DNA of 64,000 nucleotides, from the NCBI GenBank assembly GCA_902780525.1, contig CACZFL010000006.1, positions 96,650 to 160,649 on the forward strand, read 5' to 3'. The notes under the pieces were generated by a model. The model worked only from the letters and a program-made list of their open reading frames with translations, was not told the origin of the DNA and made no database searches. The first letter of the stretch is position 1, and each line of letters starts with the position of its first letter. Made by a program: the position numbers and the translations under genes. This DNA comes from an uncultured bacterium (GTDB taxonomy: Bacteria > Cyanobacteriota > Vampirovibrionia > Gastranaerophilales > Gastranaerophilaceae). Shown piece after piece: positions 3,687-46,631 of the stretch.

Positions 3687-3833
3687 AAATCTCTCCTACT
3701 CTAACTAGACTATTTTAACATAAATATTTGTATTTCAAATTAAGAATATATAAACATTTGTAAAATTTTTTATAAATTCAGTCAAAGATTAAGAAAAATA
3801 AATCTTTATATAAACAGGAAGGTATGTGTGTAA

Positions 3834-4247
3834 ATGATAAATGCCATTAATAATATAATGAGTTCGGCTCCATACGGATATACTAATTTTCGTTCAAACA
3901 ATGAATCGCTCAAAAGACTGGATTTTCAACCAAGATTGCGCCCCCAGCCTGTTATTGATTTTTTTGAAAAAAGCGGAATAAACGGTTCAGGAAATATAGC
4001 TTCAAAAACCGAAAAGCTTTTTCCTTATGCAGAAATAAAAAAATATGCACCGAGCAAACGTGAAACTGAGCGGAATAAAGTTATAGAAAAGGAAAAAGAA
4101 CATATAGCAAAAACAGTAACCAAACGAACAGAAGAAAGCAAAAGAAAATTGCGAGCAGCAGGAGTAAACGAACGTGAATTATATAAATATATAACCATTG
4201 ACGGTCATATTAACAGCGAGGGGCAGCGTATTATAAGGGGCAATTAA
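3834..4247 (+). CDS. hypothetical basic protein (orphan)
   Basis: 137-aa ORF with AGGAAGG SD-like sequence about 10 nt upstream. Lys/Arg/Glu-rich C-terminal half. No recognisable domain. Confidence 0.6.
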   Translation: MINAINNIMSSAPYGYTNFRSNNESLKRLDFQPRLRPQPVIDFFEKSGINGSGNIASKTEKLFPYAEIKKYAPSKRETERNKVIEKEKEHIAKTVTKRTEESKRKLRAAGVNERELYKYITIDGHINSEGQRIIRGN

Positions 4248-5423: not shown

Positions 5424-5924
5424 ATGACTGAAACAACAAAAGAGAGTATTGATTTCAAGGTCATTGATGACATCTTGAAATCTTTTGAGTACAAAAAATC
5501 GTACTTAATCGCTATGTTGCAAAAGGTTCAGGAAGTTTTTCGTTACCTCCCCGAAGACGCTATGACTTATATAGGGGAACATGTTGAAGGACTTTCACCT
5601 GCAACCGTTTACGGTGTTGCAACATTCTATGCACAATTTTCATTAGAGCCTAAGGGTAAATATGAAATCAGAGTTTGTGACGGTACAGCTTGCCACGTTC
5701 GTGGTTCAATGCCTGTATTAAACGCTATCAGAAACAAACTTAAACTCAAAGAAGGACAGACTACTTGTGATAACGGTTTATTCTCGCTTGAGATAGTAAG
5801 CTGCTTAGGTGCATGCGGTCTTGCCCCTGTTTGCGTAATTAACGATAAAGTTTACCCGCAAATGACCTCTGATGCTATAAGCACAATTCTTGATACACTT
5901 ATGAAAGAGGAGGGCATTGCATAA
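5424..5924 (+). CDS. hydC: [FeFe] hydrogenase NuoE-like 2Fe-2S subunit
   Basis: 166 aa. Thioredoxin-like [2Fe-2S] pattern C..GTAC....C..LGACGLAP typical of NuoE/HndA. Its stop overlaps the start of the next gene. Confidence 0.9.
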   Translation: MTETTKESIDFKVIDDILKSFEYKKSYLIAMLQKVQEVFRYLPEDAMTYIGEHVEGLSPATVYGVATFYAQFSLEPKGKYEIRVCDGTACHVRGSMPVLNAIRNKLKLKEGQTTCDNGLFSLEIVSCLGACGLAPVCVINDKVYPQMTSDAISTILDTLMKEEGIA

Positions 5925-7777
5925 TGACTTTAAATATAGATATTATCGAAGAACAAAAGAAAGCCCAGGAACATATTAAAGAACAAGGACTTCGTGTTCT
6001 GGTTTGTGCAGGTACTGGCTGCGTAGCAAACGGCTCTCTTAAAGTTATTGAAAAATTCAGAGAGTTAGGCGCAAATGTTTCCACTCTTACTGATTATGAC
6101 AAAATGACCATTGTTCCGACCGGTTGCCACGGCTTCTGTGAACAGGGCGTTTTGGTTATTATTCCTGACAAGCACGTTACTTATGTAAAAGTACACGTTG
6201 AAGATGTAGAAGAAATTTTTGAAAGCCATATTAAAGGCGGTCAGCCTGTTGAAAGACTTTTATACAAAGACCCTAAAACAGGTGAAGCAGTTCACAGAAA
6301 CGACGATATTAACTTCTATGCTAAACAAACACGTACGGCTCTTAAAAACTGCGGTAAGATTAACGCTGAGTCAATCGATGAAGCTATCGCAGTAAGAGGA
6401 TACGAAGCTTTAGCTAAAGTTATTACAGAAAATAATCCTGACGCTGTTATTGATACAATTACAAAATCAGGCTTAAGAGGAAGAGGAGGCGGAGGCTTCC
6501 CAACCGGTATGAAATGGAAATTCACAGCTGCAAACAGAGGCGGAAAGTCTTACGTTGTTTGTAACGGTGATGAAGGTGACCCGGGTGCATTTATGGACCG
6601 TTCCGTTATGGAAGGAGACCCTCATAAACTGTTAGAAGGTATGGCAATTGCAGGTTTTGCAATCGGTGCAGACGAAGCTTATATTTATGTTCGTGCTGAA
6701 TATCCGCTTGCAATTAAACGTTTAAGAAAAGCTATTGCTGATGCTGAAGAAAGACACTACTTAGGTCAAAACATCTTAGGCAGTGACTTCTCATTCACAA
6801 TCCATATTAAAGAAGGTGCAGGTGCATTTGTTTGCGGTGAAGAAACAGCTCTTATCGCATCAATCGAAGGTGAAAGAGGTATGCCTCGTCCGAAACCGCC
6901 CTTCCCTGCTAACAAAGGTTTGTTTGGAAGACCTACTTTGATTAATAACGTAGAAACTCTTGCTAACGTACCTTTGATTATCTTAAACGGTGCTGAATGG
7001 TTCTCATCTATGGGTTGTGAAACATCTAAAGGTACAAAAACATTCGCTCTTACAGGTGAAGTAAATAACACTGGTCTTATCGAAGTTCCGATGGGTACAA
7101 CTTTACGACAAATCATTTTTGATATCGGCGGCGGTATCAGAGGCGGTAAGAAGTTCAAAGCCGTACAAATCGGCGGACCTTCTGGCGGCTGTTTAACAGA
7201 AGAACACCTTGATATCTCAATGGATTATGATTCTTTAATCAAAGCAGGTGCAATGGTTGGTTCAGGCGGTCTTGTTGTTATGGCGGAAGACACTTGTATG
7301 GTTGAAGTTGCAAGATTCTTCATGAACTTCACTAAGAACGAATCCTGCGGTAAGTGTGTTCCGTGCCGTGAAGGTACAAAGAACTTACTTAAAATCTTAG
7401 AAAAGATTGTTGCAGGCAAAGGTGAAATGGAAGACCTCGACAGACTGGAGCAGTTAGCTTTGACAGTTAAAGACGGTTCTCTCTGCGGTCTTGGTAAAAC
7501 CGCTCCAAACCCTGTTCTATCAACTTTAAAATACTTTAAAGATGAATATATTGCTCACATTCGCGACCACAAATGTCCGGCCGGCGTTTGTACCGCAATG
7601 AAGAAAATATCTATTGACCCTGAAAAATGTAAAGGTTGTACTAAGTGTGCAAGAACTTGTCCTGTTGGTGCAATTGAAGGAACGGTTAAAAATCCGCACA
7701 AGATTGACCAGTCTAAATGTATTAAGTGCGAAGCTTGTCTGAATGCTTGTCCGTTCAAGGCAATAGGTAAGGAATAG
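5924..7777 (+). CDS. hydB: [FeFe] hydrogenase NuoF-like flavoprotein subunit (FMN/NADH-binding, Fe-S)
   Basis: 617 aa. GRGGGGFPTGMKW FMN/NADH motif, ESCGKCVPCREG 4Fe-4S motif, and a C-terminal 2x[4Fe-4S] ferredoxin domain (CKGCTKCARTCP, CIKCEACLNACP). Confidence 0.93.
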   Translation: MTLNIDIIEEQKKAQEHIKEQGLRVLVCAGTGCVANGSLKVIEKFRELGANVSTLTDYDKMTIVPTGCHGFCEQGVLVIIPDKHVTYVKVHVEDVEEIFESHIKGGQPVERLLYKDPKTGEAVHRNDDINFYAKQTRTALKNCGKINAESIDEAIAVRGYEALAKVITENNPDAVIDTITKSGLRGRGGGGFPTGMKWKFTAANRGGKSYVVCNGDEGDPGAFMDRSVMEGDPHKLLEGMAIAGFAIGADEAYIYVRAEYPLAIKRLRKAIADAEERHYLGQNILGSDFSFTIHIKEGAGAFVCGEETALIASIEGERGMPRPKPPFPANKGLFGRPTLINNVETLANVPLIILNGAEWFSSMGCETSKGTKTFALTGEVNNTGLIEVPMGTTLRQIIFDIGGGIRGGKKFKAVQIGGPSGGCLTEEHLDISMDYDSLIKAGAMVGSGGLVVMAEDTCMVEVARFFMNFTKNESCGKCVPCREGTKNLLKILEKIVAGKGEMEDLDRLEQLALTVKDGSLCGLGKTAPNPVLSTLKYFKDEYIAHIRDHKCPAGVCTAMKKISIDPEKCKGCTKCARTCPVGAIEGTVKNPHKIDQSKCIKCEACLNACPFKAIGKE

Positions 7778-7789
7778 GGGGAAATAGAA

Positions 7790-9568
7790 ATGACAGACGA
7801 AAAGAAAACATTATTTATAGAAGGAAAAGAAGTCGAATTTTCTAATGAACCTAACCTTTTAGAAGTAATTAGAAAAGCAGGCATGAATGTTCCTACATTA
7901 TGTTACAGACCTGACTTAACATCATTTGGTGCTTGCAGAATGTGTGTTGTAGAAGTTGAGTATCCTAACGGAAGAAAAATGATTAACTCTTCTTGTACAA
8001 TGCCTCCTGAAGCAAACATCAAAGTTCATTTGAACACACAAAAAGTCAGAAATATCAGAAAAATGGTACTTGAACTTCTTCTTGCAAATCATGACAGAGA
8101 ATGTACAACTTGTGAAAAATCAGGTGCATGCGAACTTCAAAAATACGCTGAAGAGTACGGTATCAGACATGTAAAACAATACGCTCAGCGTGAAGTTATG
8201 GTTAAAAAAGATGCAAGCTCATGTGCATTAATCCGTGATAATAACAAATGTATCCTTTGCGGAGCTTGTGTAAGAGCTTGTGACGAACACCAAGGCTTAC
8301 AGGTTTTAGGTTTCGCTAACCGCGGAAGCAAAACGGTTGTTGAACCTATGGCAGGCAGAGACCTCGGAAGCAGTGAATGTATTAATTGCGGTCAGTGTGC
8401 GGCAGTATGTCCGACAGGCGCAATTACAATAAACGACGAGCAGCTCGATGGTGTTTGGAGAGCAATCAACAATCCTGAAAAGAAAGTTGTTGCTCAGTTT
8501 GCACCTTCTGTTCGTGTTGCAATAGGTGAAATGTTCGGTTTAGAACCAGGTGAAAACTCAACTAAGAAAATTAATGCGGCATTACGAAGAATCGGTTTTG
8601 ACCTTGTATTTGATACAAACTTCTCCGCAGACTTAACAATTATGGAAGAAGCTCACGAGTTCTTAGGCAGACTTCAAAACGGGGGTAAATTACCGTTATT
8701 TACTTCATGTTGTCCTGGTTGGGTAAGATTCTTGGAAATCCAGCACCCTGATATGCTTGGCCACTTATCAACTTGTAAATCACCTCAAGGTATGTTGGGT
8801 GCAATAATCAGAGAATACGTTCCGCAGTCTCACGAAGGATTTACTTCGGAAAACTTGGTAAGCGTTTCAATTATGCCTTGTACGGCTAAGAAGTACGAAG
8901 CAAAACGTGAACAGTTCAAAATGGCAGACGGCAGACAAGAAATTGACTACGTTCTTACAACTCAGGAACTTGGCAGAATGATTAAAGAAGCAGGTATTGA
9001 CTTTGCTGCTCTCGAAGGTGAAGAACCTGATTCTCCGTTTGGTAAATACACAGGTGCCGGTACAATCTTCGGTGTATCAGGCGGTGTTGCTGAAGCTGCT
9101 GCAAGAACTGCCTACGAAGTTGTAACAGGTGAAACTCTTCAAAATGTCGTTATTGACGATATGAGAGGAACAAAACGTGTTAAAACAGTCGAACTTGATC
9201 TTAAAGGAACTAAGATTAAAGTTAAAATCGTTAACACACTTCGTGAAGCAGAAAAATGCATCAGAGAAATCAAAGAAGGCAAAGCGGATTATCAGCTTCT
9301 TGAAGTTATGGCTTGTCCGGGCGGTTGTATCAACGGCGGCGGTCAGCCACAAAGCTGCAACGATTCTAATATCAAGGAACTTCGTGCTCAAGGCTTGTAC
9401 AAAGATGATGAAACAGGTGAATGGAGAAAATCACACGAAAACCCTGAAATCAAAGAATTGTACGCAACTCGCTTAGAAAAACCAAACTCTCATAAGGCAC
9501 ACGAACTCTTGCATACTACTTATGTGAACAAGAGAACAAACTGCTACATCTCAGTTGGTGAGGGGTAA
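7790..9568 (+). CDS. hydA: [FeFe] hydrogenase catalytic subunit
   Basis: 592 aa. N-terminal 2Fe-2S and 4Fe-4S domains. H-cluster signatures TSCCPGW, MPCTAKKYE and EVMACPGGCINGGGQP. Confidence 0.95.
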   Translation: MTDEKKTLFIEGKEVEFSNEPNLLEVIRKAGMNVPTLCYRPDLTSFGACRMCVVEVEYPNGRKMINSSCTMPPEANIKVHLNTQKVRNIRKMVLELLLANHDRECTTCEKSGACELQKYAEEYGIRHVKQYAQREVMVKKDASSCALIRDNNKCILCGACVRACDEHQGLQVLGFANRGSKTVVEPMAGRDLGSSECINCGQCAAVCPTGAITINDEQLDGVWRAINNPEKKVVAQFAPSVRVAIGEMFGLEPGENSTKKINAALRRIGFDLVFDTNFSADLTIMEEAHEFLGRLQNGGKLPLFTSCCPGWVRFLEIQHPDMLGHLSTCKSPQGMLGAIIREYVPQSHEGFTSENLVSVSIMPCTAKKYEAKREQFKMADGRQEIDYVLTTQELGRMIKEAGIDFAALEGEEPDSPFGKYTGAGTIFGVSGGVAEAAARTAYEVVTGETLQNVVIDDMRGTKRVKTVELDLKGTKIKVKIVNTLREAEKCIREIKEGKADYQLLEVMACPGGCINGGGQPQSCNDSNIKELRAQGLYKDDETGEWRKSHENPEIKELYATRLEKPNSHKAHELLHTTYVNKRTNCYISVGEG

Positions 9569-14206: not shown

Positions 14207-14227
14207 TTTGTAAAGTTTTGTAACAAA
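14207..14227 (+). promoter_or_regulatory. HLR1-like direct-repeat box
   Basis: TTTGTAAAGTTTTGTAACAAA. The reverse complement GTTACAAA-AC-TTTACAAA matches (G/T)TTACA(T/A)(T/A)-N2-(G/T)TTACA(T/A)(T/A). Confidence 0.55.
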
Positions 14228-14304: not shown

Positions 14305-15510
14305 ATGGTAGCAGTTAATCAAAATATATTTAGAAATGTCGGATGTACTGTACAAAGTATGTTTGATCCTAATACTTCAACAGAATCAAAAATACAAAGC
14401 GGTATAAACGGATTAACAAGCGTATTTTTTGCATTGGGTGGTGATGATGCCGAAGCAGAAGCAAATGCAGCCGTAAGAGAAAATGAAGAGATAAACAATA
14501 ATTTGAATGCTTCACTTCAAACACAGTCAGAAGCTAATAAAAATGCTATTCAGTCTATTATAGATCAAATTAATGAAAATCAGAAAAAAATTACAGAGAT
14601 TTTGGAACAGATAAACGGCTTAGAAGAAGAAAAAAATAAAATAAACAAAGAAGTTGAATTACATCAGGAAGAAATACAAAAACAAAAAGATACATATGAA
14701 AATGCAACAACCCCGGAAGAAAGACGAAAAGCTCTTGATGCAATAAGCAACGAAAATGCTGCGGTTCAGGAACTTTTAGGCAGAGTTCAAACTCTTAGCA
14801 ATCAACAAACTGAGCTGAATGAACAAACAGAAGAAGCAGAATCAGTAAATGCAGATTTGCAAGTACAAGCAGATGATACAAAAGCAGAAGGTGAGAGCAA
14901 AATACAAACTATACAGCAGCAAGCTGTCGCTAATAAAGCTCAGGTAACCGGAAAACTTGCAGCTCAAGAAACAAAATATGTAGCAAAAGCAGCTGAATAT
15001 ATGGCTAAAGCAATTGCATCAAAAACATCAGGATTTTTCTCCAGTGTATGTACATTTGGCTTGGGCGGTGTAGCAGGAGATATGGCAGCTGAAAAATATA
15101 TGCAGCTTTCACTAAATAATACTGCAGCCGCAGGAATAATCAGCAGTGGAGTTCCGCAAATATTATCTACAATAGGTAATGTTTTTGACGGTACAAATGT
15201 AAATTTAGGTTTTCTGACAAATACATCTTCTTATATTGGAAGTTTAACTTCCGCAGCAAACGGTGATGTAGAAGCATTTTTTGGAATTTCAAATTCACTT
15301 GGCAGTCAACTTGGTGACAGCTTGCAAAGCTGGACGGAAACTTCTGAAAATATTGATAATGCAATTGAAGTAGGTAATCAAGAAGAAACAAATGTAACAG
15401 GCAATGATAATAAAGATGACTCCAATGGCGATGTTACCGTAAGTAACGATAATAATGAAGAAAAGAAAAAATTTAATGCAGAGCCTGATTTTAATGTTCA
15501 AATGGTATAA
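14305..15510 (+). CDS. hypothetical coiled-coil protein with Gly/Ala-rich hydrophobic segments
   Basis: 401 aa. About 170 aa of Gln/Glu/Asn-rich heptad-like sequence, then GFFSSVCTFGLGGVAGDMAA and AAAGIISSGVPQILSTIG hydrophobic stretches, then an acidic Asn/Asp-rich tail. Confidence 0.7.
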   Translation: MVAVNQNIFRNVGCTVQSMFDPNTSTESKIQSGINGLTSVFFALGGDDAEAEANAAVRENEEINNNLNASLQTQSEANKNAIQSIIDQINENQKKITEILEQINGLEEEKNKINKEVELHQEEIQKQKDTYENATTPEERRKALDAISNENAAVQELLGRVQTLSNQQTELNEQTEEAESVNADLQVQADDTKAEGESKIQTIQQQAVANKAQVTGKLAAQETKYVAKAAEYMAKAIASKTSGFFSSVCTFGLGGVAGDMAAEKYMQLSLNNTAAAGIISSGVPQILSTIGNVFDGTNVNLGFLTNTSSYIGSLTSAANGDVEAFFGISNSLGSQLGDSLQSWTETSENIDNAIEVGNQEETNVTGNDNKDDSNGDVTVSNDNNEEKKKFNAEPDFNVQMV

Positions 15511-26298: not shown

Positions 26299-26850
26299 AT
26301 GACAACATTGGCTGAAAATTATAACTATGTAAAAGAACACATAAGAATTGTTCCTGATTTTCCAAAGAAAGGAATAATGTTTTTAGACATAACAACTGCC
26401 TTAAAAGATGCAAAAGCGATGCAGATGATGGTTGATTTTTTATATGAAAAATTTAAGTCTGAAAACGTTGATTATGTTGCAGGTATTGAGTCAAGAGGTT
26501 TTATATTTGGTGCAGCACTCGCATATAAACTGGGGTGCGGATTTGTGACAATTAGAAAGCCTAATAAGCTACCTGCAAAAACAATAAAAGAGGATTATAC
26601 CCTTGAATACGGTACAAACACAATTGAAATACACGAAGATGCAATTAAGTCCGGTGACAGAGTTGTAGTAATAGATGATCTTCTTGCAACAGGAGGAACG
26701 GCAATTGCAGCCTGCAACCTTATTAAACGTGTTGGTGCAGAAGTTGTTTCAACAGCATTTATAATTGAACTTGACCCGTTAAAAGGCAGAGAAAAGATTG
26801 AGTCACAAGGGTATAAAGTAATATCCATGCTGAACTATGATTTAGATTAA
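26299..26850 (+). CDS. apt: adenine phosphoribosyltransferase
   Basis: 183 aa. Typical Apt length and the PRPP motif VVVIDDLLATGGT. Confidence 0.93.
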   Translation: MTTLAENYNYVKEHIRIVPDFPKKGIMFLDITTALKDAKAMQMMVDFLYEKFKSENVDYVAGIESRGFIFGAALAYKLGCGFVTIRKPNKLPAKTIKEDYTLEYGTNTIEIHEDAIKSGDRVVVIDDLLATGGTAIAACNLIKRVGAEVVSTAFIIELDPLKGREKIESQGYKVISMLNYDLD

Positions 26851-26883
26851 AATCAAAATTATTTATTTTCAAAACAACAAAAA

Positions 26884-26906
26884 AGTGTCTTATAAAGGCA
26901 CTTTTT
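26884..26906 (+). terminator. intrinsic terminator after apt
   Basis: AGTGTCT, 5-nt loop, AGGCACT (one G-U pair), followed by T5. Confidence 0.6.
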
Positions 26907-26908
26907 GT

Positions 26909-26929
26909 TTTGTAAATTTTTGTAACAAA
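26909..26929 (+). promoter_or_regulatory. HLR1-like direct-repeat box
   Basis: TTTGTAAATTTTTGTAACAAA. Reverse complement is GTTACAAA-AA-TTTACAAA. Confidence 0.55.
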
Positions 26930-26974
26930 ATTAAAGAGTTTTGAAATTTTAGAGATTAAATATACTTTATATAT

Positions 26975-27098
26975 ATGTAAGACATAAACAAAGAAACATA
27001 ACACAACCTTTCATACAACCTACACACTAACCTTCTACACATGAGGAATTATTAAAAAAAGATTCCAAAACCTAATCACAGAGATTAGGTTTTTTTTT
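26975..27098 (+). ncRNA. candidate small RNA (CA-rich, about 120 nt), no ORF
   Basis: TTGAAA (26941)-N16-TACTTT (26963) promoter module, about 90 nt of G-poor C/A-rich sequence, then a strong terminator AACCTAATC-ACAGA-GATTAGGTT plus T8 (27069-27098). The longest ORF is 4 codons. The 5' end is estimated only. Confidence 0.45.
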
Positions 27099-27182
27099 GC
27101 TCAATCTAAAGTGCTTATAAATGCTTTACTACTGGTATAATTTGTAGTAATATTAGTATAGTGGAGAAAGAGTGCGTAAATT

Positions 27183-28019
27183 ATGGGTTATAAAATATTA
27201 TCAAAAACAGAATTATGTCCTAACCAGTATGAAATAACTGTTGACGCCCCTTATGTTGTGCGTAATGCACGTGCAGGGCAGTTTATTATTTTCAGAGCTG
27301 AAGAAAACGGAGAAAGAGTCCCGCTTACGATAGCTGATGTTGATAAAGAAACAGGTGCTCTTACTCTTGTATTTATGGCTGTCGGATATTCAACAAAAAA
27401 ACTTGCAGAGCTGAATGTCGGCGACGAGCTTGTTGATATAGTAGGTCCTCTGGGACAACCGACACATATCAAAAAATACGGTACGGTTGTTTGCCTTGCA
27501 GGCGGGTACGGTGCTGCTCCGTGTTATTTGATTGCCAAAGCATTCAAAGAAGCCGGCAACAAAGTTTATATGATAATGGGAGCAAGGAATAAAGATTTGA
27601 TTTTCTGGCAGGATAAGATGAAAAATGCCTGCACGGAATTGTTTATAACGACAGATGACGGAACTTTGGGTGAAAAAGGTTTTGTAACTCAGGTTCTTGA
27701 AAGAATTATTAACAATGAAAAAGTAGATTATGCAATAGCGGTTGGTCCTATGCCGATGATGAGAGCCGTTGCAAATCTTACAAAGGATAAAGGAATATAC
27801 ACTGAAGCAAGCATGAATCCGATTATGGTTGACGGAACAGGTATGTGTGGAGCTTGCCGTGTTACCGTTGGCGGAAAAACAAAATTTGCCTGTGTTGACG
27901 GTCCTGATTTTAATGCTCATGAAATTGATTTTGATGAGGTTATAAACCGAACCAAAATATACAAAGATCAGGAGCGCAAACGTGATGAGAATTGTAATTT
28001 GCTGAAAACAGCTAAGTAA
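27183..28019 (+). CDS. PyrK/NfnA/SudB-like FAD and 2Fe-2S oxidoreductase subunit
   Basis: 278 aa. Ferredoxin-reductase-type FAD/NAD fold and a C-terminal cluster motif GMCGACRV....KFACVDGP. Confidence 0.8.
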   Translation: MGYKILSKTELCPNQYEITVDAPYVVRNARAGQFIIFRAEENGERVPLTIADVDKETGALTLVFMAVGYSTKKLAELNVGDELVDIVGPLGQPTHIKKYGTVVCLAGGYGAAPCYLIAKAFKEAGNKVYMIMGARNKDLIFWQDKMKNACTELFITTDDGTLGEKGFVTQVLERIINNEKVDYAIAVGPMPMMRAVANLTKDKGIYTEASMNPIMVDGTGMCGACRVTVGGKTKFACVDGPDFNAHEIDFDEVINRTKIYKDQERKRDENCNLLKTAK

Positions 28020-28035
28020 TAAGGAGATATAACAG

Positions 28036-28227
28036 ATGGCATCAGATGAAAAAGCAATACCTTTATGTCCGCTTATGAGTGTGGGCTCTCAGGTTGAAAT
28101 TGTATGTATGCAGGAAAACTGTGCTTGGTATTTAAAAAATTATAAAATTTGTTCGGTATATATGATGGCTCATAACTCAATGCTGGACGTTCAGGCAAAG
28201 CAAAAAGCAAAACAGGCTCAAAATTAA
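28036..28227 (+). CDS. small Cys-containing hypothetical protein
   Basis: 63 aa. AAGGAG SD 9 nt upstream. Starts 16 nt after the preceding gene and is followed by a terminator. Confidence 0.5.
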   Translation: MASDEKAIPLCPLMSVGSQVEIVCMQENCAWYLKNYKICSVYMMAHNSMLDVQAKQKAKQAQN

Positions 28228-33685: not shown

Positions 33686-34234
33686 TTAAAATAAATTACT
33701 AAAGAAATTTACTACTTTTTCACCAAATTTTTCTAAATCGCTTTTTGTATTTTCATGCAATTCTTTTTGTTCCTGAGCTTTTTTGTCTGCATTCTTTTGT
33801 TGTATTCTTTTGCTAACCTCTGCTTCCTGCCTGTCTACTTCTTTTTGAGAAGCTGCAAATTCCTCTTCGCTCATATATGGCACAATAGCTGTTTTATTTG
33901 CAAGTGCTTTAAACGGGTTCCCTCCATTTAATGCTTCTATAGATTTAGAAGAAGCTCCGTTATTTTTGTATTTTGCTGCTAATTCAGTTGTATTATTATA
34001 TATAAAATTATGGTTTTTCTGTATTGTAACAGTATTTGCTGAAGATTGTTTTATATTACTAAAATCAAAATTATACCCTGTTTCTTTTTTTACCAATGAT
34101 TTAAAAAGCTCAATCTCTTTGCCATCAATCATACCATTGTTGTTGCCGCCGTTTTTGGTATCTTGGTCAACTTTTTGTGCATAAGCTCTTAAATTACCTG
34201 TAAACATAGAATGTGTGTAACCAATTTCTGTCAT
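33686..34234 (-). CDS. hypothetical protein (orphan) with an EF-hand-like loop
   Basis: 182 aa. AAGGAG SD upstream. GGNNNGMIDGKE approximates a 12-residue Ca-binding loop. Lys/Glu/Gln-rich C-terminal half. Confidence 0.65.
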   Translation of the reverse strand: MTEIGYTHSMFTGNLRAYAQKVDQDTKNGGNNNGMIDGKEIELFKSLVKKETGYNFDFSNIKQSSANTVTIQKNHNFIYNNTTELAAKYKNNGASSKSIEALNGGNPFKALANKTAIVPYMSEEEFAASQKEVDRQEAEVSKRIQQKNADKKAQEQKELHENTKSDLEKFGEKVVNFFSNLF

Positions 34235-34271: not shown

Positions 34272-34319
34272 AAAGTATTTCACGAAGAAATAATTGACAT
34301 GTTTGTAAAGAAATGTAAC
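34272..34319 (-). promoter_or_regulatory. promoter module (TACTTT -10-like with ATATATA block) plus HLR1-like box
   Basis: Minus strand reads GTTACATT-TC-TTTACAAA (34319-34302), then ATGTCA-N17-TACTTTATATATAC (34300-34264). Confidence 0.45.
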
Positions 34320-34333
34320 AACGCTTTAAAAAA

Positions 34334-36175
34334 TTAGAGTCCCAATGACGGAGCAATAGAGATAAATGTTCTGACTAAATCTGCATCCCATTGTGAACCA
34401 GCCCCTTCTTCCAATATAGATACGGCTTTTTCAATACTCATGCCTTTTCTGTATGGACGATCGCTTGTGAGTGCGTGATAAGTATCTGCAATAGCGACAA
34501 TCTTTGCAGCAAGCGGAATATCTCCGTTTGAAAGACCTTCCGGATAACCTTTTCCGTCAATTCTTTCATGGTGGTATTTTACAATCGGGATTAAATCACG
34601 TAGCGAAGTGTTTGGCATAAGAACTTTTTCGGCACCAATGGTTGGGTGTTGTTTCATAATAACCCATTCTTCATCAGAAAGCGGGCCCTCTTTTTGAAGA
34701 ACGGTTTCTGGGATACCGATTTTTCCTACATCGTGAAGCAGTGCACCTAATCTTATGCGCTCAATTTCTGTTTCCGGCAGATTAATAGCTCTTGCAAGAG
34801 CTTCAGAGTACCTGGAAACACAAGTCGAGTGGTCTTTTGTATATGGGTCTTTCGCATCAATTGCGCCTGCAAGTGAAGATGCGATTTCAAATATTCTGTT
34901 ACTTGGTATTGTTTCGTGGTCAAAATTAAATTTAGCTAAAAGCTCTTCTTCAAAGTTGACACCCAGCTGTGCGTGACGTTTACCGAGAACTTCTGCATAG
35001 GACTTGAGTGCTACATCATCCCAGAAGTTGAAGTCTGCAGAACTTATGATTGCGGACATACCGTCTTTGTATCCTCTTGCTTTAGAAATATACATTGCCT
35101 GTTCCGCAAGAATAAGTAATTTCTCTTTGTTATCTGCACATTTAGGATAAGAAGAAATACCAACTGATACCTTAACAGGTCCGACGTTATCAATATAGAA
35201 ACATGAAAGTGCATATGTCAGATATTCTGCAACGTATTTTGCCTGTTCTACGTTTGTGTTCGGAAGTATTATAGCGAGTTCGTCACCGCCGTATCTTGCA
35301 GCAATATCATTTTCTCTGACATTTTTACGAATACTTTCAGCAACAAGTTTTATTACTTCATCACCTTTTGCGTGTCCCAAATCTCTGTTAATTTTAGTAA
35401 TATTGCAGATGTCGAGCATTATTACCGATAAATTCTGTTTGGATGTTTCTGCCCTTGAAAGCTCATCTGATAAGAGTTCCTGGAAACATCTGTGGTTATA
35501 TAAAAGAGTTAAGTTATCCGTATTAACGTATTTGTCGCTTGTTTCTACCAGCTCCATGTTGTGTGTAACAAGAGCAACGCAATTTGCAATCATTGTATAA
35601 AGTCCGACATTTTGCCTTGCGTAATTGTCGGCAAAAATCATTACCCCTATACATTTATTAACTGATAGTAACGGTAATATAACAATAGGATTATTTTTAA
35701 AGTATGCAAGTTTTAAGAAAGATACATCATCTACAAAAAGCGGCTGCTGAGTGTTAAAAACCTGAATAATAGGGTTATCTTCGTCTTTCATGAAAACTTT
35801 TGTAGTATAGAAATTTCCGAGTTTATCCTGAAGTCTTAAATTTATGCAATTTGATTTTTCTCTGTAAACACCAACCGCACAGAATCCGGAATCTATGTTT
35901 TGAAGGATTATTCCATAAACTTTTGAATAAAAATCATATAAATTTTGAACAGGATACAGATTGTTCAATTCTTCAAGAACGAGTTTGTAATCCAGAGTCT
36001 TTCCTTTTTCTGTTGCAAAAGTTTTTGACCGTGGATTTGTAAGCGAATTTGACTTGTTTCCGTTGATTAATGAGTTAATTTTAGAAACAAGCTTCTTTGC
36101 CGATATAGGTGAAGTTACACCGGTTGTTGTTTCTGTATTGCTGTTGATGTTTGATATAATCTTTTCTTTATTCAC
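34334..36175 (-). CDS. GGDEF diguanylate-cyclase domain plus HD-GYP phosphodiesterase domain protein with N-terminal sensor (GAF-like) region
   Basis: 613 aa with an apparent GTG start. RYGGDELAIILP (GGDEL variant of GGDEF). The C-terminal HD-GYP signature is HDVGKIGIP....HHERIDGKGYP. Confidence 0.85.
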   Translation of the reverse strand: MNKEKIISNINSNTETTTGVTSPISAKKLVSKINSLINGNKSNSLTNPRSKTFATEKGKTLDYKLVLEELNNLYPVQNLYDFYSKVYGIILQNIDSGFCAVGVYREKSNCINLRLQDKLGNFYTTKVFMKDEDNPIIQVFNTQQPLFVDDVSFLKLAYFKNNPIVILPLLSVNKCIGVMIFADNYARQNVGLYTMIANCVALVTHNMELVETSDKYVNTDNLTLLYNHRCFQELLSDELSRAETSKQNLSVIMLDICNITKINRDLGHAKGDEVIKLVAESIRKNVRENDIAARYGGDELAIILPNTNVEQAKYVAEYLTYALSCFYIDNVGPVKVSVGISSYPKCADNKEKLLILAEQAMYISKARGYKDGMSAIISSADFNFWDDVALKSYAEVLGKRHAQLGVNFEEELLAKFNFDHETIPSNRIFEIASSLAGAIDAKDPYTKDHSTCVSRYSEALARAINLPETEIERIRLGALLHDVGKIGIPETVLQKEGPLSDEEWVIMKQHPTIGAEKVLMPNTSLRDLIPIVKYHHERIDGKGYPEGLSNGDIPLAAKIVAIADTYHALTSDRPYRKGMSIEKAVSILEEGAGSQWDADLVRTFISIAPSLGL

Positions 36176-36252: not shown

Positions 36253-36409
36253 TCTAATTTTCTTCTAAGTACCCCTATTAATTACATGCTAACATTTTTT
36301 AAGGTTTTTTCCACCCTGAAACTCTTATAATTTTACAAATGTTTATAATTTGTGTAATATGTACACCAATTATTTTAATAAATCTACTCTTTTTTATCCC
36401 TGTTATCGG

Positions 36410-39487: not shown

Positions 39488-39658
39488 TTATTTTTTGACT
39501 CGTGAGATAAAAGTTACTCTCGACTTCATATCAATTGCGAATAATCGCATTTCGTCAACCAGAATATGTGACTGATCACCGTTGTCACCATCGATGAAAA
39601 ATTCTTTTGAGATTTGTGTTGCCATAGCATTAATGTTGTACGTGTTTAAAACTGCCAT
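39488..39658 (-). CDS. small ORF (56 aa), hypothetical
   Basis: Not in the track. GTGAGGT SD 5 nt upstream of the ATG at 39658. MAVLNTYNINAMATQISKEFFIDGDNGDQSHILVDEMRLFAIDMKSRVTFISRVKK. It has its own promoter module and terminator. Confidence 0.5.
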   Translation of the reverse strand: MAVLNTYNINAMATQISKEFFIDGDNGDQSHILVDEMRLFAIDMKSRVTFISRVKK

Positions 39659-39794: not shown

Positions 39795-39867
39795 CTTACA
39801 TATATATAAAGTATATATAACTTTTTGAATTTCAAACCTCTCTTGTTTTGTTACAAATCTTAACAAT
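39795..39867 (-). promoter_or_regulatory. HLR1-like box plus TTGAAA-N16-TACTTT-ATATATATGTAAG promoter module
   Basis: Plus strand has GTTACAAA-TC-TTAACAAT at 39850-39867. The minus strand has TTGAAA (39835-39830), TACTTT (39813-39808), then ATATATATGTAAG. Confidence 0.5.
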
Positions 39868-39932: not shown

Positions 39933-39951
39933 ATTGTAAAGAATTGTAAAT
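39933..39951 (+). promoter_or_regulatory. HLR1-like direct-repeat box
   Basis: ATTGTAAAGAATTGTAAAT. Reverse complement is TTTACAAT-TC-TTTACAAT. Confidence 0.5.
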
Positions 39952-39967
39952 AATATTCAAAAAATCC

Positions 39968-39994
39968 TAAAGTTTTCAGAATTTGTGCCGATAT
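39968..39994 (+). promoter_or_regulatory. sigma-28 (FliA/SigD)-type promoter candidate
   Basis: TAAA-N15-GCCGATAT matches the TAAA-N15-GCCGATAA consensus. It ends 28 nt upstream of the ATG at 40023. Confidence 0.5.
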
Positions 39995-40022
39995 ACATTA
40001 TATATATAAGCAGAGGTGTGTC

Positions 40023-40490
40023 ATGTCTAACTTCACTGTAAACGGAGTATATTCTTATACAAGTGCGAATATCTACTCTTATCTGGGTAGATTACCGACC
40101 AACAATGCTGCTTTAAAAGAAGCATTCAGGGAATTTGGTATTGCTCCTACAGGAAAAGAATCTGACTTAAAAAGACTTGAAAATGCGATGTACCGTGAGT
40201 ATTCAGAGCAGGTAAGAGAGCAAATCGATAACCAAAACTCTGAAAAAAATAATGTACCGTGGGCAGGAATACTTGCGCAGATAGGTATTCAGCCAACAGG
40301 TGATTATGACACGGATTATCAGGCATTTAACAATGCAATTCAGCTTCTGAGTCAGAGTGCAATTGATGGTCAGGCTATGGCATACTTTGCAGGACTGAGA
40401 AGCGAAGCACAAAGTGCTTTTGCTTCTTATTCTCCGTCGGATCAACAGGTACAAACTTTCTTCGATTATAAAGTTCAACATCTTTCATAA
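40023..40490 (+). CDS. hypothetical protein with two GIxPTG repeats (HeH/SAP-like)
   Basis: 155 aa. AGAGGTG SD. Internal repeat FGIAPTGKESDLKRLENAM / IGIQPTGDYDTDYQAFNNAI. Confidence 0.65.
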   Translation: MSNFTVNGVYSYTSANIYSYLGRLPTNNAALKEAFREFGIAPTGKESDLKRLENAMYREYSEQVREQIDNQNSEKNNVPWAGILAQIGIQPTGDYDTDYQAFNNAIQLLSQSAIDGQAMAYFAGLRSEAQSAFASYSPSDQQVQTFFDYKVQHLS

Positions 40491-46613: not shown

Positions 46614-46631
46614 ATTGTAACAAAATGTTAA
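46614..46631 (+). promoter_or_regulatory. HLR1-like box (one mismatch)
   Basis: ATTGTAACAAAATGTTAA. Reverse complement is TTAACATT-TT-GTTACAAT. About 100 nt upstream of speD. Confidence 0.35.

Follow-up and report, generated by a model that had tools for sequence, protein, structure and literature searches.

A candidate base-pairing small RNA gene with an HLR1-type promoter box, conserved among Gastranaerophilales of the rumen and human gut

In a stretch of 64,000 nucleotides (nt) from an uncultured member of the Gastranaerophilaceae (GenBank assembly GCA_902780525.1, contig CACZFL010000006.1, positions 96,650 to 160,649 of the forward strand), here called the window, we found a predicted small RNA (sRNA) gene between the apt gene and a gene for a PyrK/NfnA-like flavoprotein. 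The Melainabacteria (Vampirovibrionia), which live in gut and rumen, are non-photosynthetic and as yet uncultured relatives of the cyanobacteria, and no regulatory RNA of this group was described in the literature searched. Judged from its sequence, the element is a member of a previously undescribed sRNA family of the Gastranaerophilales (Melainabacteria), with many rumen and human-gut members, while base-pairing sRNAs as such are a known kind. That it is an independent, terminator-ended gene devoid of any substantial open reading frame (ORF), with transcription predicted from its promoter and terminator, is strongly supported by the comparisons described below. The parts of the unit, in window coordinates, are as follows.

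26909-26926, + strand: HLR1-type box TTTGTAAATTTTTGTAAC, a direct repeat TTTGTAAA-TT-TTTGTAAC that matches WWTGTAAMNNWWTGTAAM perfectly
26941-26948, + strand: -35-like element TTGAAATT (G[A/C]AATT as consensus of the family); every variant keeps 14 nt between it and the ATACTTTATATATAT block
26962-26977, + strand: conserved -10/discriminator block ATACTTTATATATATG, with TACTTT or TTTATA as the -10, present upstream of every family member
26977-27098, + strand: predicted sRNA transcript of about 120 nt, the promoter-to-terminator unit, 5' end within 5 nt either way
26978-26999, + strand: variable 5' segment, differing in length and sequence among species and paralogues
27000-27050, + strand: C/A-rich core AACACAACCTTTCATACAACCTACACACTAACCTTCTACACATGAGGAATT, 51 nt, near-invariant and predicted to be unpaired, the proposed seed region
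27041-27055, + strand: mini-ORF ATGAGGAATTATTAA (ATG AGG AAT TAT TAA, MRNY), the only ORF, judged to be non-coding
27045-27066, + strand: hairpin 1, GGAAUU/(G/A)AUUCC, with a variable A-rich loop and an invariant stem sequence (no covariation)
27067-27098, + strand: intrinsic terminator AACCTAATC-ACAGA-GATTAGGTT (AAAACCTAATC-ACAGA-GATTAGGTTTT as RNA) followed by T9, detected by a terminator search

A first-pass annotation of this interval had proposed a stand-alone, ORF-less small RNA gene, and the HLR1-like box, the hexamers TTGAAA (26941-26946) and TACTTT (26963-26968) with their 16-nt spacer, the hairpin and the terminator were all found where it had placed them. Its description of about 90 nt of nearly G-free sequence was too generous, the G-poor stretch being 65 nt long (26978-27042) with 2 G and holding a 49-nt G-free run. 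This run is only the third-longest in the window and its length is reached by 31% of shuffles; as the sRNA promoter was also not flagged in a sigma-70 consensus scan, composition or consensus matching alone would be insufficient for finding the gene. It is the conservation of promoter, core, hairpin and terminator as one unit in about 100 loci that raises the finding above chance. Positions 26975-27100 fold with -17.3 kcal/mol (z = -3.9), and within the core, which carries AACCT units at 27005, 27017 and 27029, spaced by exactly 12 nt, the mean unpaired probability was 0.89. The latter value comes from folding members one by one, which replaced RNAalifold on a MAFFT alignment; RNAalifold recovers only hairpin 1 because indels in the terminator misalign.

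The conservation was seen first of all in loci that were retrieved without use of the sRNA sequence. Three species (L004, L007 and L011), collected by means of their Apt protein (85-95% identical), have in common the promoter blocks and the 51-nt block ACACAACC...GGAATTA, which is 100% identical; the intergenic DNA around it could not be aligned among them, and changes in the terminator stem were compensated. A metagenome scan with a 20-mer from the core returned 99 stretches, which came from rumen and human-gut samples and of which all but one were this same unit. Among the 56 distinct RNA sequences so obtained, the flanks of the 20-mer probe were invariant in nearly all, and every one of the 56 ended in a hairpin of 7-13 pairs followed by a T run, in 47 different hairpin sequences. 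The conservation in relatives that had been named as a check of the annotation was thus borne out, including the AACCU units at their fixed 12-nt spacing. The window, of about 35% G+C, is matched exactly by rumen metagenome contigs (L001 with 100% identity across 26909-27098), and its nearest relatives in genome collections were metagenome-assembled genomes that carry the label Candidatus Gastranaerophilales or are rumen 'RUG' bins; the organism is accordingly a rumen member of the Melainabacteria. In 1.3 Mb of local sequence, nhmmer with a profile and --max added nothing to the members found with the 20-mer and gave no second copy in the window, and a 24-mer of the core, used as a check for phage origin, had no match in viral contigs. 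At synonymous third positions of the neighboring pyrK-like gene, identity between these species is only 51-65%, as against an invariant core. Every position of the core is therefore under selection, and this is stronger than the selection on the protein-coding gene.

The unit was also found to be independent of its neighbors. Its gene contexts number at least six and are unrelated to one another: in about 45 loci it lies immediately 5' of a pyrK-like gene-orf63-purA operon on the same strand, with about 60-90 nt from terminator to ATG, and elsewhere it is located between an E3 lipoamide dehydrogenase gene and a convergent gene for a 276-residue protein, or divergent from flagellin, the gene downstream of it then being convergent. 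Contig OLGD01000017.1 has two copies (L095 and L160) in two contexts, with different 5' parts and an identical core. A leader that acts purely in cis is ruled out by the varied and convergent contexts and by the contig that has two copies, and the same observations strongly support the stand-alone gene of the first-pass annotation. Several contigs end or start inside the core, among them two of the window's own species (L002 at window position ~27046 and L003 at ~27038) as well as L090, L101, L110, L120, L138 and L153, as would be expected of a multi-copy identical repeat at assembly.

Neither a protein nor a known RNA could be assigned to the interval. The longest ORF is indeed of four codons, as had been stated, and its ATG is replaced by ACG in three variants (L088, L158 and L166), while the position of its stop shifts, giving MRN* in most variants; with no codon-like variation, both the sense mini-ORF and an antisense ORF were rejected as coding on their conservation pattern. 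With Rfam 15 at gathering thresholds the window yielded only two tRNAs, and at E <= 10 no match overlapped 26975-27100. In the scan of a human-gut member (L092) the top match was Phe_leader, with 24.5 bits against a threshold of 55, and all matches were far below threshold. The covariance-model search that the annotation had recommended therefore returned no family, and identity with a known RNA family was rejected, as nothing credible appeared in the scans of the window and of the human-gut member.

The promoter of the sRNA places it in the company of a particular set of genes. In cyanobacteria the HLR1 consensus, which is bound by RpaB, consists of two 8-nt direct repeats (G/T)TTACA(T/A)(T/A) that are 2 nt apart (PMC6525291), and this consensus was used for our scoring. 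The box at 26909-26926 is the reverse orientation of (G/T)TTACA(T/A)(T/A)-N2-repeat and may be a site for an RpaB-like regulator of the OmpR family. All variants of the family have the fixed layout [WWTGTAAM-N2-WWTGTAAM] - ~N13 - G[A/C]AATT - N14 - ATACTTTATATATAT. When 52 distinct family promoters were examined, 24 had a perfect HLR1 box and 49 had one with no more than two mismatches at a fixed offset, as compared with 11 of 1040 shuffles. The window as a whole has 8 HLR1-type boxes where 0.69 are expected (about 12-fold enriched) and 7 copies of the ATACTTTATATATATG block, at up to three mismatches, where 1.7 are expected. These boxes precede orphan ORFs, a GGDEF/HD-GYP gene and the sRNA, supporting the earlier proposal that the sRNA has its promoter architecture in common with orphan protein genes, a set that was found to include flagellin as well: in 6 of 7 relatives, flagellin promoters have the box at an equal distance from a TCTATAAT -10. 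As the box is common to flagellin genes and several orphan genes, the sRNA would belong to their regulon, and the HLR1-box genes of the window, taken together, appear to be a candidate regulon of the RpaB type. By their distance from the transcription start, RpaB boxes fall into an activating class (-66 to -45) and a repressing class (-38 to +23). If the start is at about 26975-26980, as predicted, the center of the sRNA box would be at about -58 to -62, inside the activating class. RpaA, RpaB and NblS homologues of unknown function were reported as retained in Melainabacteria (PMC3787301); no response regulator was found in the 64-kb window.

The seven other boxes of the window, with 0-1 mismatch, were located at 3747-3764, 14207-14224, 34302-34319, 36332-36349, 39850-39867, 39933-39950 and 46614-46631. 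Genes 3' of such boxes, mostly without Pfam match, are those at 3834-4247, 14305-15510, 33686-34234, 39488-39658 and 40023-40490, and further boxes precede the GGDEF/HD-GYP gene (34334-36175) and a speD-like gene. A promoter of the same type at 39799-39725 (- strand) is followed by about 75 nt ending in a hairpin ACGGG-N8-CCCGT with T5, after which comes an ORF of 56 codons; this unit could function as an attenuator or encode a second small RNA. Directly 5' of the orphan ORF 40023-40490 is a sigma-28-like promoter, TAAAGTTT-N11-GCCGATAT (~39968-39995, + strand), and the same arrangement was seen at the homologue of this ORF in L005.

The unit has the anatomy of a multi-seed base-pairing sRNA, in that a long stretch which is unpaired, G-free and invariant precedes a small hairpin and an intrinsic terminator. 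A trans-acting RNA with several seeds directed against Shine-Dalgarno (SD) sequences is the explanation that we favor, at somewhat better than even confidence. In this mechanism a sigma-70-like promoter would be activated by an OmpR-type regulator, probably the RpaB homologue kept by the Gastranaerophilales, bound to the HLR1-type repeat, whose center lies some 58-62 nt upstream of the start. The sRNA would then act in trans through its 51-nt unstructured core, the C/A-rich seeds of which (the three AACCU units and CUACACAUGAGG) may pair with purine- or GU-rich translation-initiation regions with an SD of the GAAAGGUU type, so that ribosome binding would be blocked or modulated. In the rumen clade the best candidate target is the flagellin mRNA. 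That it is indeed a target there seems possible, with the chances against it, and is less likely than the anti-SD action itself.

The first-pass annotation had also suggested the AACCT units as an anti-SD seed, and for this the evidence is circumstantial, drawn from the window and about 1.3 Mb of fetched loci. The part that stood concerns flagellin and, to a lesser degree, the HLR1-box genes. The sRNA is the divergent neighbor of flagellin in L096/L100, L099, L157, L174, L191/L192 and L196/L197, and flagellin genes divergent from it carry GAAAGGTTA(GGGA)ATG, by which a sequence complementary to AACCUUUC(AU) and (C)UAACCUU comes to lie at the SD position, the leader upstream of the start reading GAAAGGUUAGGGA-AUG. 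Nine of 13 distinct flagellin genes have GAAAGGUU(A/G) (GAAAGGTT) at the SD position, able to form 8-10 contiguous Watson-Crick pairs with the first unit of the core and 7-8 with the third, whereas among 554 other translation initiation regions only 4 contain AAAGGTT. Duplex energies of HLR1-box genes were somewhat lower than those of other genes, a weak effect (Mann-Whitney p = 0.012, n = 18); the HLR1-box gene at 3834-4247 ranked 4 of 565, and SD-region matches of 7+7 or 9 nt were found in that gene, in an ORF of 147 codons in L085/L119 and in one of 239 codons in L170.

A number of results weigh against pairing of this kind. No global signal of targets was seen: duplex energies of 559 translation initiation regions equalled those of a shuffled-core null, 10-12-mers complementary to the core were not enriched, and longest-match counts resembled a composition-matched control. 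The flagellin translation initiation regions ranked only 29-143 of 565 in duplex energy. The motif is absent from the flagellin of L170, about 4 kb from the sRNA, and from that of L196, which has the sRNA as divergent neighbor; the human-gut flagellins in L131, L141 and L198 lack it as well, yet human-gut species show no less invariance of the core. The invariance of 51 nt also exceeds the need of a single seed, and conservation of the flagellin leader could instead come from its own SD or from CsrA-type AGGGA sites. Two candidate targets were rejected. The adhE gene of the window gave the top in-window duplex, at -33.3 kcal/mol in four colinear blocks, and was dismissed as chance or species-specific, the leaders of four other Gastranaerophilales adhE genes reaching -8 to -22 kcal/mol; the pyrK-like gene was dismissed as a conserved target on percentiles of only 2-28 and inconsistent pairing. 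In a human-gut relative, L184, a Rex-type inverted repeat TTGTGATAAATTTCACAA lies 5' of adhE (~1935-1955), which the adhE leader of the window does not have.

The flagellin leaders themselves (L188, L191, L194, L196, L199 and L186) are conserved and long, at about 150-260 nt 5' of the ATG, and their promoters have TCTATAAT and an HLR1 box. They have two UUAGGGA motifs about 45 nt apart, the second abutting the AUG, an arrangement that resembles the two CsrA sites of Bacillus hag.

The same core could serve a protein rather than mRNAs. In such a sponge or platform RNA, the three 12-nt AACCU units, and perhaps the GGA of hairpin 1, would sequester an oligomeric RNA-binding protein with no mRNA pairing, candidates being a KH, RRM or CsrA-like regulator, or Rho, which prefers C-rich, G-poor, unstructured sites. 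We consider this unlikely, even though the exact 12-nt periodicity, the G-free unpaired region, an invariance beyond the need of one seed and the want of global enrichment among predicted mRNA targets would all suit it. The spacers are as invariant as the AACCU units, while CsrB/RsmZ and CrcZ keep their motifs and not their spacers. There are just three units, and the single GGA of the RNA sits in the stem of hairpin 1, where CsrB/RsmZ-type sponges have many GGA, mostly in loops. No candidate protein was linked to the sRNA in any of the six contexts, and the RNA is complementary to flagellin SD regions.

The surroundings of the unit in the window are as follows.

26299-26850: apt (Pribosyltran), 5' neighbor of the sRNA unit
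26880-26906, + strand: apt terminator hairpin, a 12-pair stem and a T-rich tail, the upstream boundary, outside the sRNA unit
27099-27182, + strand: spacer and leader of the PyrK/NfnA-like gene, partly conserved in L004, L007 and L011
27126-27132 and 27144-27150, + strand: inverted repeat TTACTAC/GTAGTAA, partly kept in relatives, which brackets TGGTATAAT (27133-27141), an extended -10-like element
27183-28019: gene for the PyrK/NfnA-like flavoprotein, 278 residues, downstream of the sRNA unit and followed by an ORF of 63 codons and purA
28036-28227, + strand: this 63-codon ORF, Cys-rich and without Pfam match, 94-100% identical in every locus that has the pyrK-like gene-orf63-purA order

Homology with relatives starts only past the apt terminator, at 26908. 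As a leader or attenuator of the pyrK-like gene-orf63-purA operon, the unit would start transcription at the HLR1-box promoter and its terminator would set read-through. The roughly 45 loci with the unit directly in front of this operon would fit such a role, as would the observation that Apt-anchored loci hold the unit only where the pyrK-like gene comes after apt. Translation initiation regions of the pyrK-like gene were within the best 2-28% of scores, and neither L007 nor L011 has kept the -10-like TGGTATAAT, so that read-through from the sRNA promoter into the operon is possible in that context. We nevertheless regard a mainly cis-acting role as improbable. The identical unit faces a convergent gene (c3) next to the E3 gene, has a convergent downstream gene (c4) where it is divergent from flagellin, and precedes unrelated genes in other loci, and on the contig with two copies only one is 5' of the operon. 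With the core unpaired, no alternative antiterminator helix is available, and riboswitch, T-box, PyrR and leader models all remained below threshold for the sRNA unit.

Still less weight falls on the partner being another RNA, with the C/A-rich core pairing to G/U-rich small RNAs. An example would be a 58-nt ORF-less unit in L145 (8166-8109, - strand), which starts with GUAAGGUUAGAUAAGGUUGUAG, is driven by the same promoter block and ends in a terminator of its own. Its two AAGGUU blocks are the exact complements of CUAACCUU and ACAACCUU; only this one instance was seen in the 1.3 Mb of local sequence. Another ORF-less promoter-to-terminator unit with the same promoter block was seen in L090 (3509-3589, + strand), its RNA being C/U-rich (UCCCUUCCUAAC), and neither this unit nor that of L145 had further copies in the local sequence. 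That the element is no RNA gene at all, rather a repeat or mobile element at the DNA level, or else a small protein gene (MRNY in sense or an antisense ORF that begins MCRRLVCRLYER), is scarcely credible: an ATG-initiated antisense frame does cross the core and the element is multi-copy with several contigs broken within it, but all three codon positions are invariant next to genes saturated at third positions, the antisense frame has no SD, diverges right past the core and loses its ATG in the ACG variants, terminal inverted repeats and target duplications are absent, and a co-oriented promoter and terminator are always present.

The proposed anti-SD sRNA can be compared with several known regulators. 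Like PsrR1 (SyR1), it is a stand-alone, terminator-ended RNA of a cyanobacterial lineage with an HLR1 direct repeat in its promoter; the regulon of PsrR1 includes protein genes over which it also exerts post-transcriptional control, by pairing at their ribosome-binding sites, and this makes a feed-forward loop (PMC6525291). Unlike PsrR1, with which no sequence or covariance-model similarity was found, it belongs to non-photosynthetic hosts, and its co-regulated genes would be flagellin and orphans, not photosystem genes; the HLR1 of PsrR1 overlaps the -35/-10 and is repressive, whereas the box described here lies, with the predicted start, at about -60 in the activating class. Repeated unpaired C-rich motifs that pair with the G-rich SD regions of several mRNAs are characteristic of RoxS/RsaE-type sRNAs of the Firmicutes. 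There, the motifs are CCCC in loops, whereas here AACCU(U/A) lies in a G-free region that is long and linear. The RNAs are not homologous, and the conserved part (51 nt) is much longer in the melainabacterial RNA. The multi-seed hub sRNAs Spot 42 and GcvB of enterobacteria also have a long, almost invariant single-stranded region with several seeds, the G/U-rich R1 of GcvB, which pairs with C/A-rich enhancers, being a mirror image of the core; both are Hfq-dependent proteobacterial RNAs with no sequence relationship to it.

In E. coli (FliX, MotR, FlgO, UhpU) and C. jejuni (CJnc230/CJnc170), sRNAs co-expressed with flagellar genes feed back on flagellin and flagellar mRNAs (PMC10578931, PMC11187230). 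The sRNA described here resembles them in its predicted co-regulation with flagellin, its targeting of flagellin being only a prediction. Those RNAs are sigma-28- or sigma-54-dependent and mostly derived from untranslated regions; the melainabacterial sRNA is free-standing, and its sigma-70-like promoter, G[A/C]AATT-N14-TACTTT with an upstream HLR1 box, is unlike the sigma-28 type TAAA-N15-GCCGATAA. CrcZ/CrcY and CsrB/RsmZ titrate a translational regulator by means of short motifs that recur in loops or unstructured stretches. Such sponges have 5-20 motifs, as opposed to one GGA and three AACCU with invariant spacers here, where the A-rich 5' part is not conserved.

In photosynthetic cyanobacteria the NblS/RpaB-HLR1 circuit governs acclimation to light and redox state. 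It is a tentative idea, for which we would claim no great probability, that non-photosynthetic Melainabacteria may have kept this circuit for a motility and cell-surface regulon that includes an anti-SD hub sRNA feeding back on flagellin and regulon mRNAs; with the same reserve, the members of that regulon might be flagellin, the GGDEF/HD-GYP protein, many orphan proteins and the sRNA. If so, the feed-forward design of RpaB and an sRNA (cf. RpaB-PsrR1) would predate photosynthesis or be independent of it, and it would be clear what RpaB and NblS do in Melainabacteria. The HLR1 link of sRNA and flagellin provides a concrete candidate regulon for these homologues, whose role has been unexplained since 2013 (PMC3787301). 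Members of the family abound in the metagenomes of rumen and human gut and are easily detected with a 20-mer probe, their core is more constrained than adjacent protein genes, and flagellin expression bears on the interaction of bacterium and host. Should base pairing hold true, a lineage whose Hfq is non-canonical would provide a compact example of an anti-SD sRNA with several seeds.

Elsewhere in the window (5424-9568, + strand), NuoE-like and NuoF-like genes are followed by a gene for the large subunit of an [FeFe]-hydrogenase. This arrangement fits an electron-bifurcating hydrogenase gene set and would be consistent with a fermentative lifestyle.

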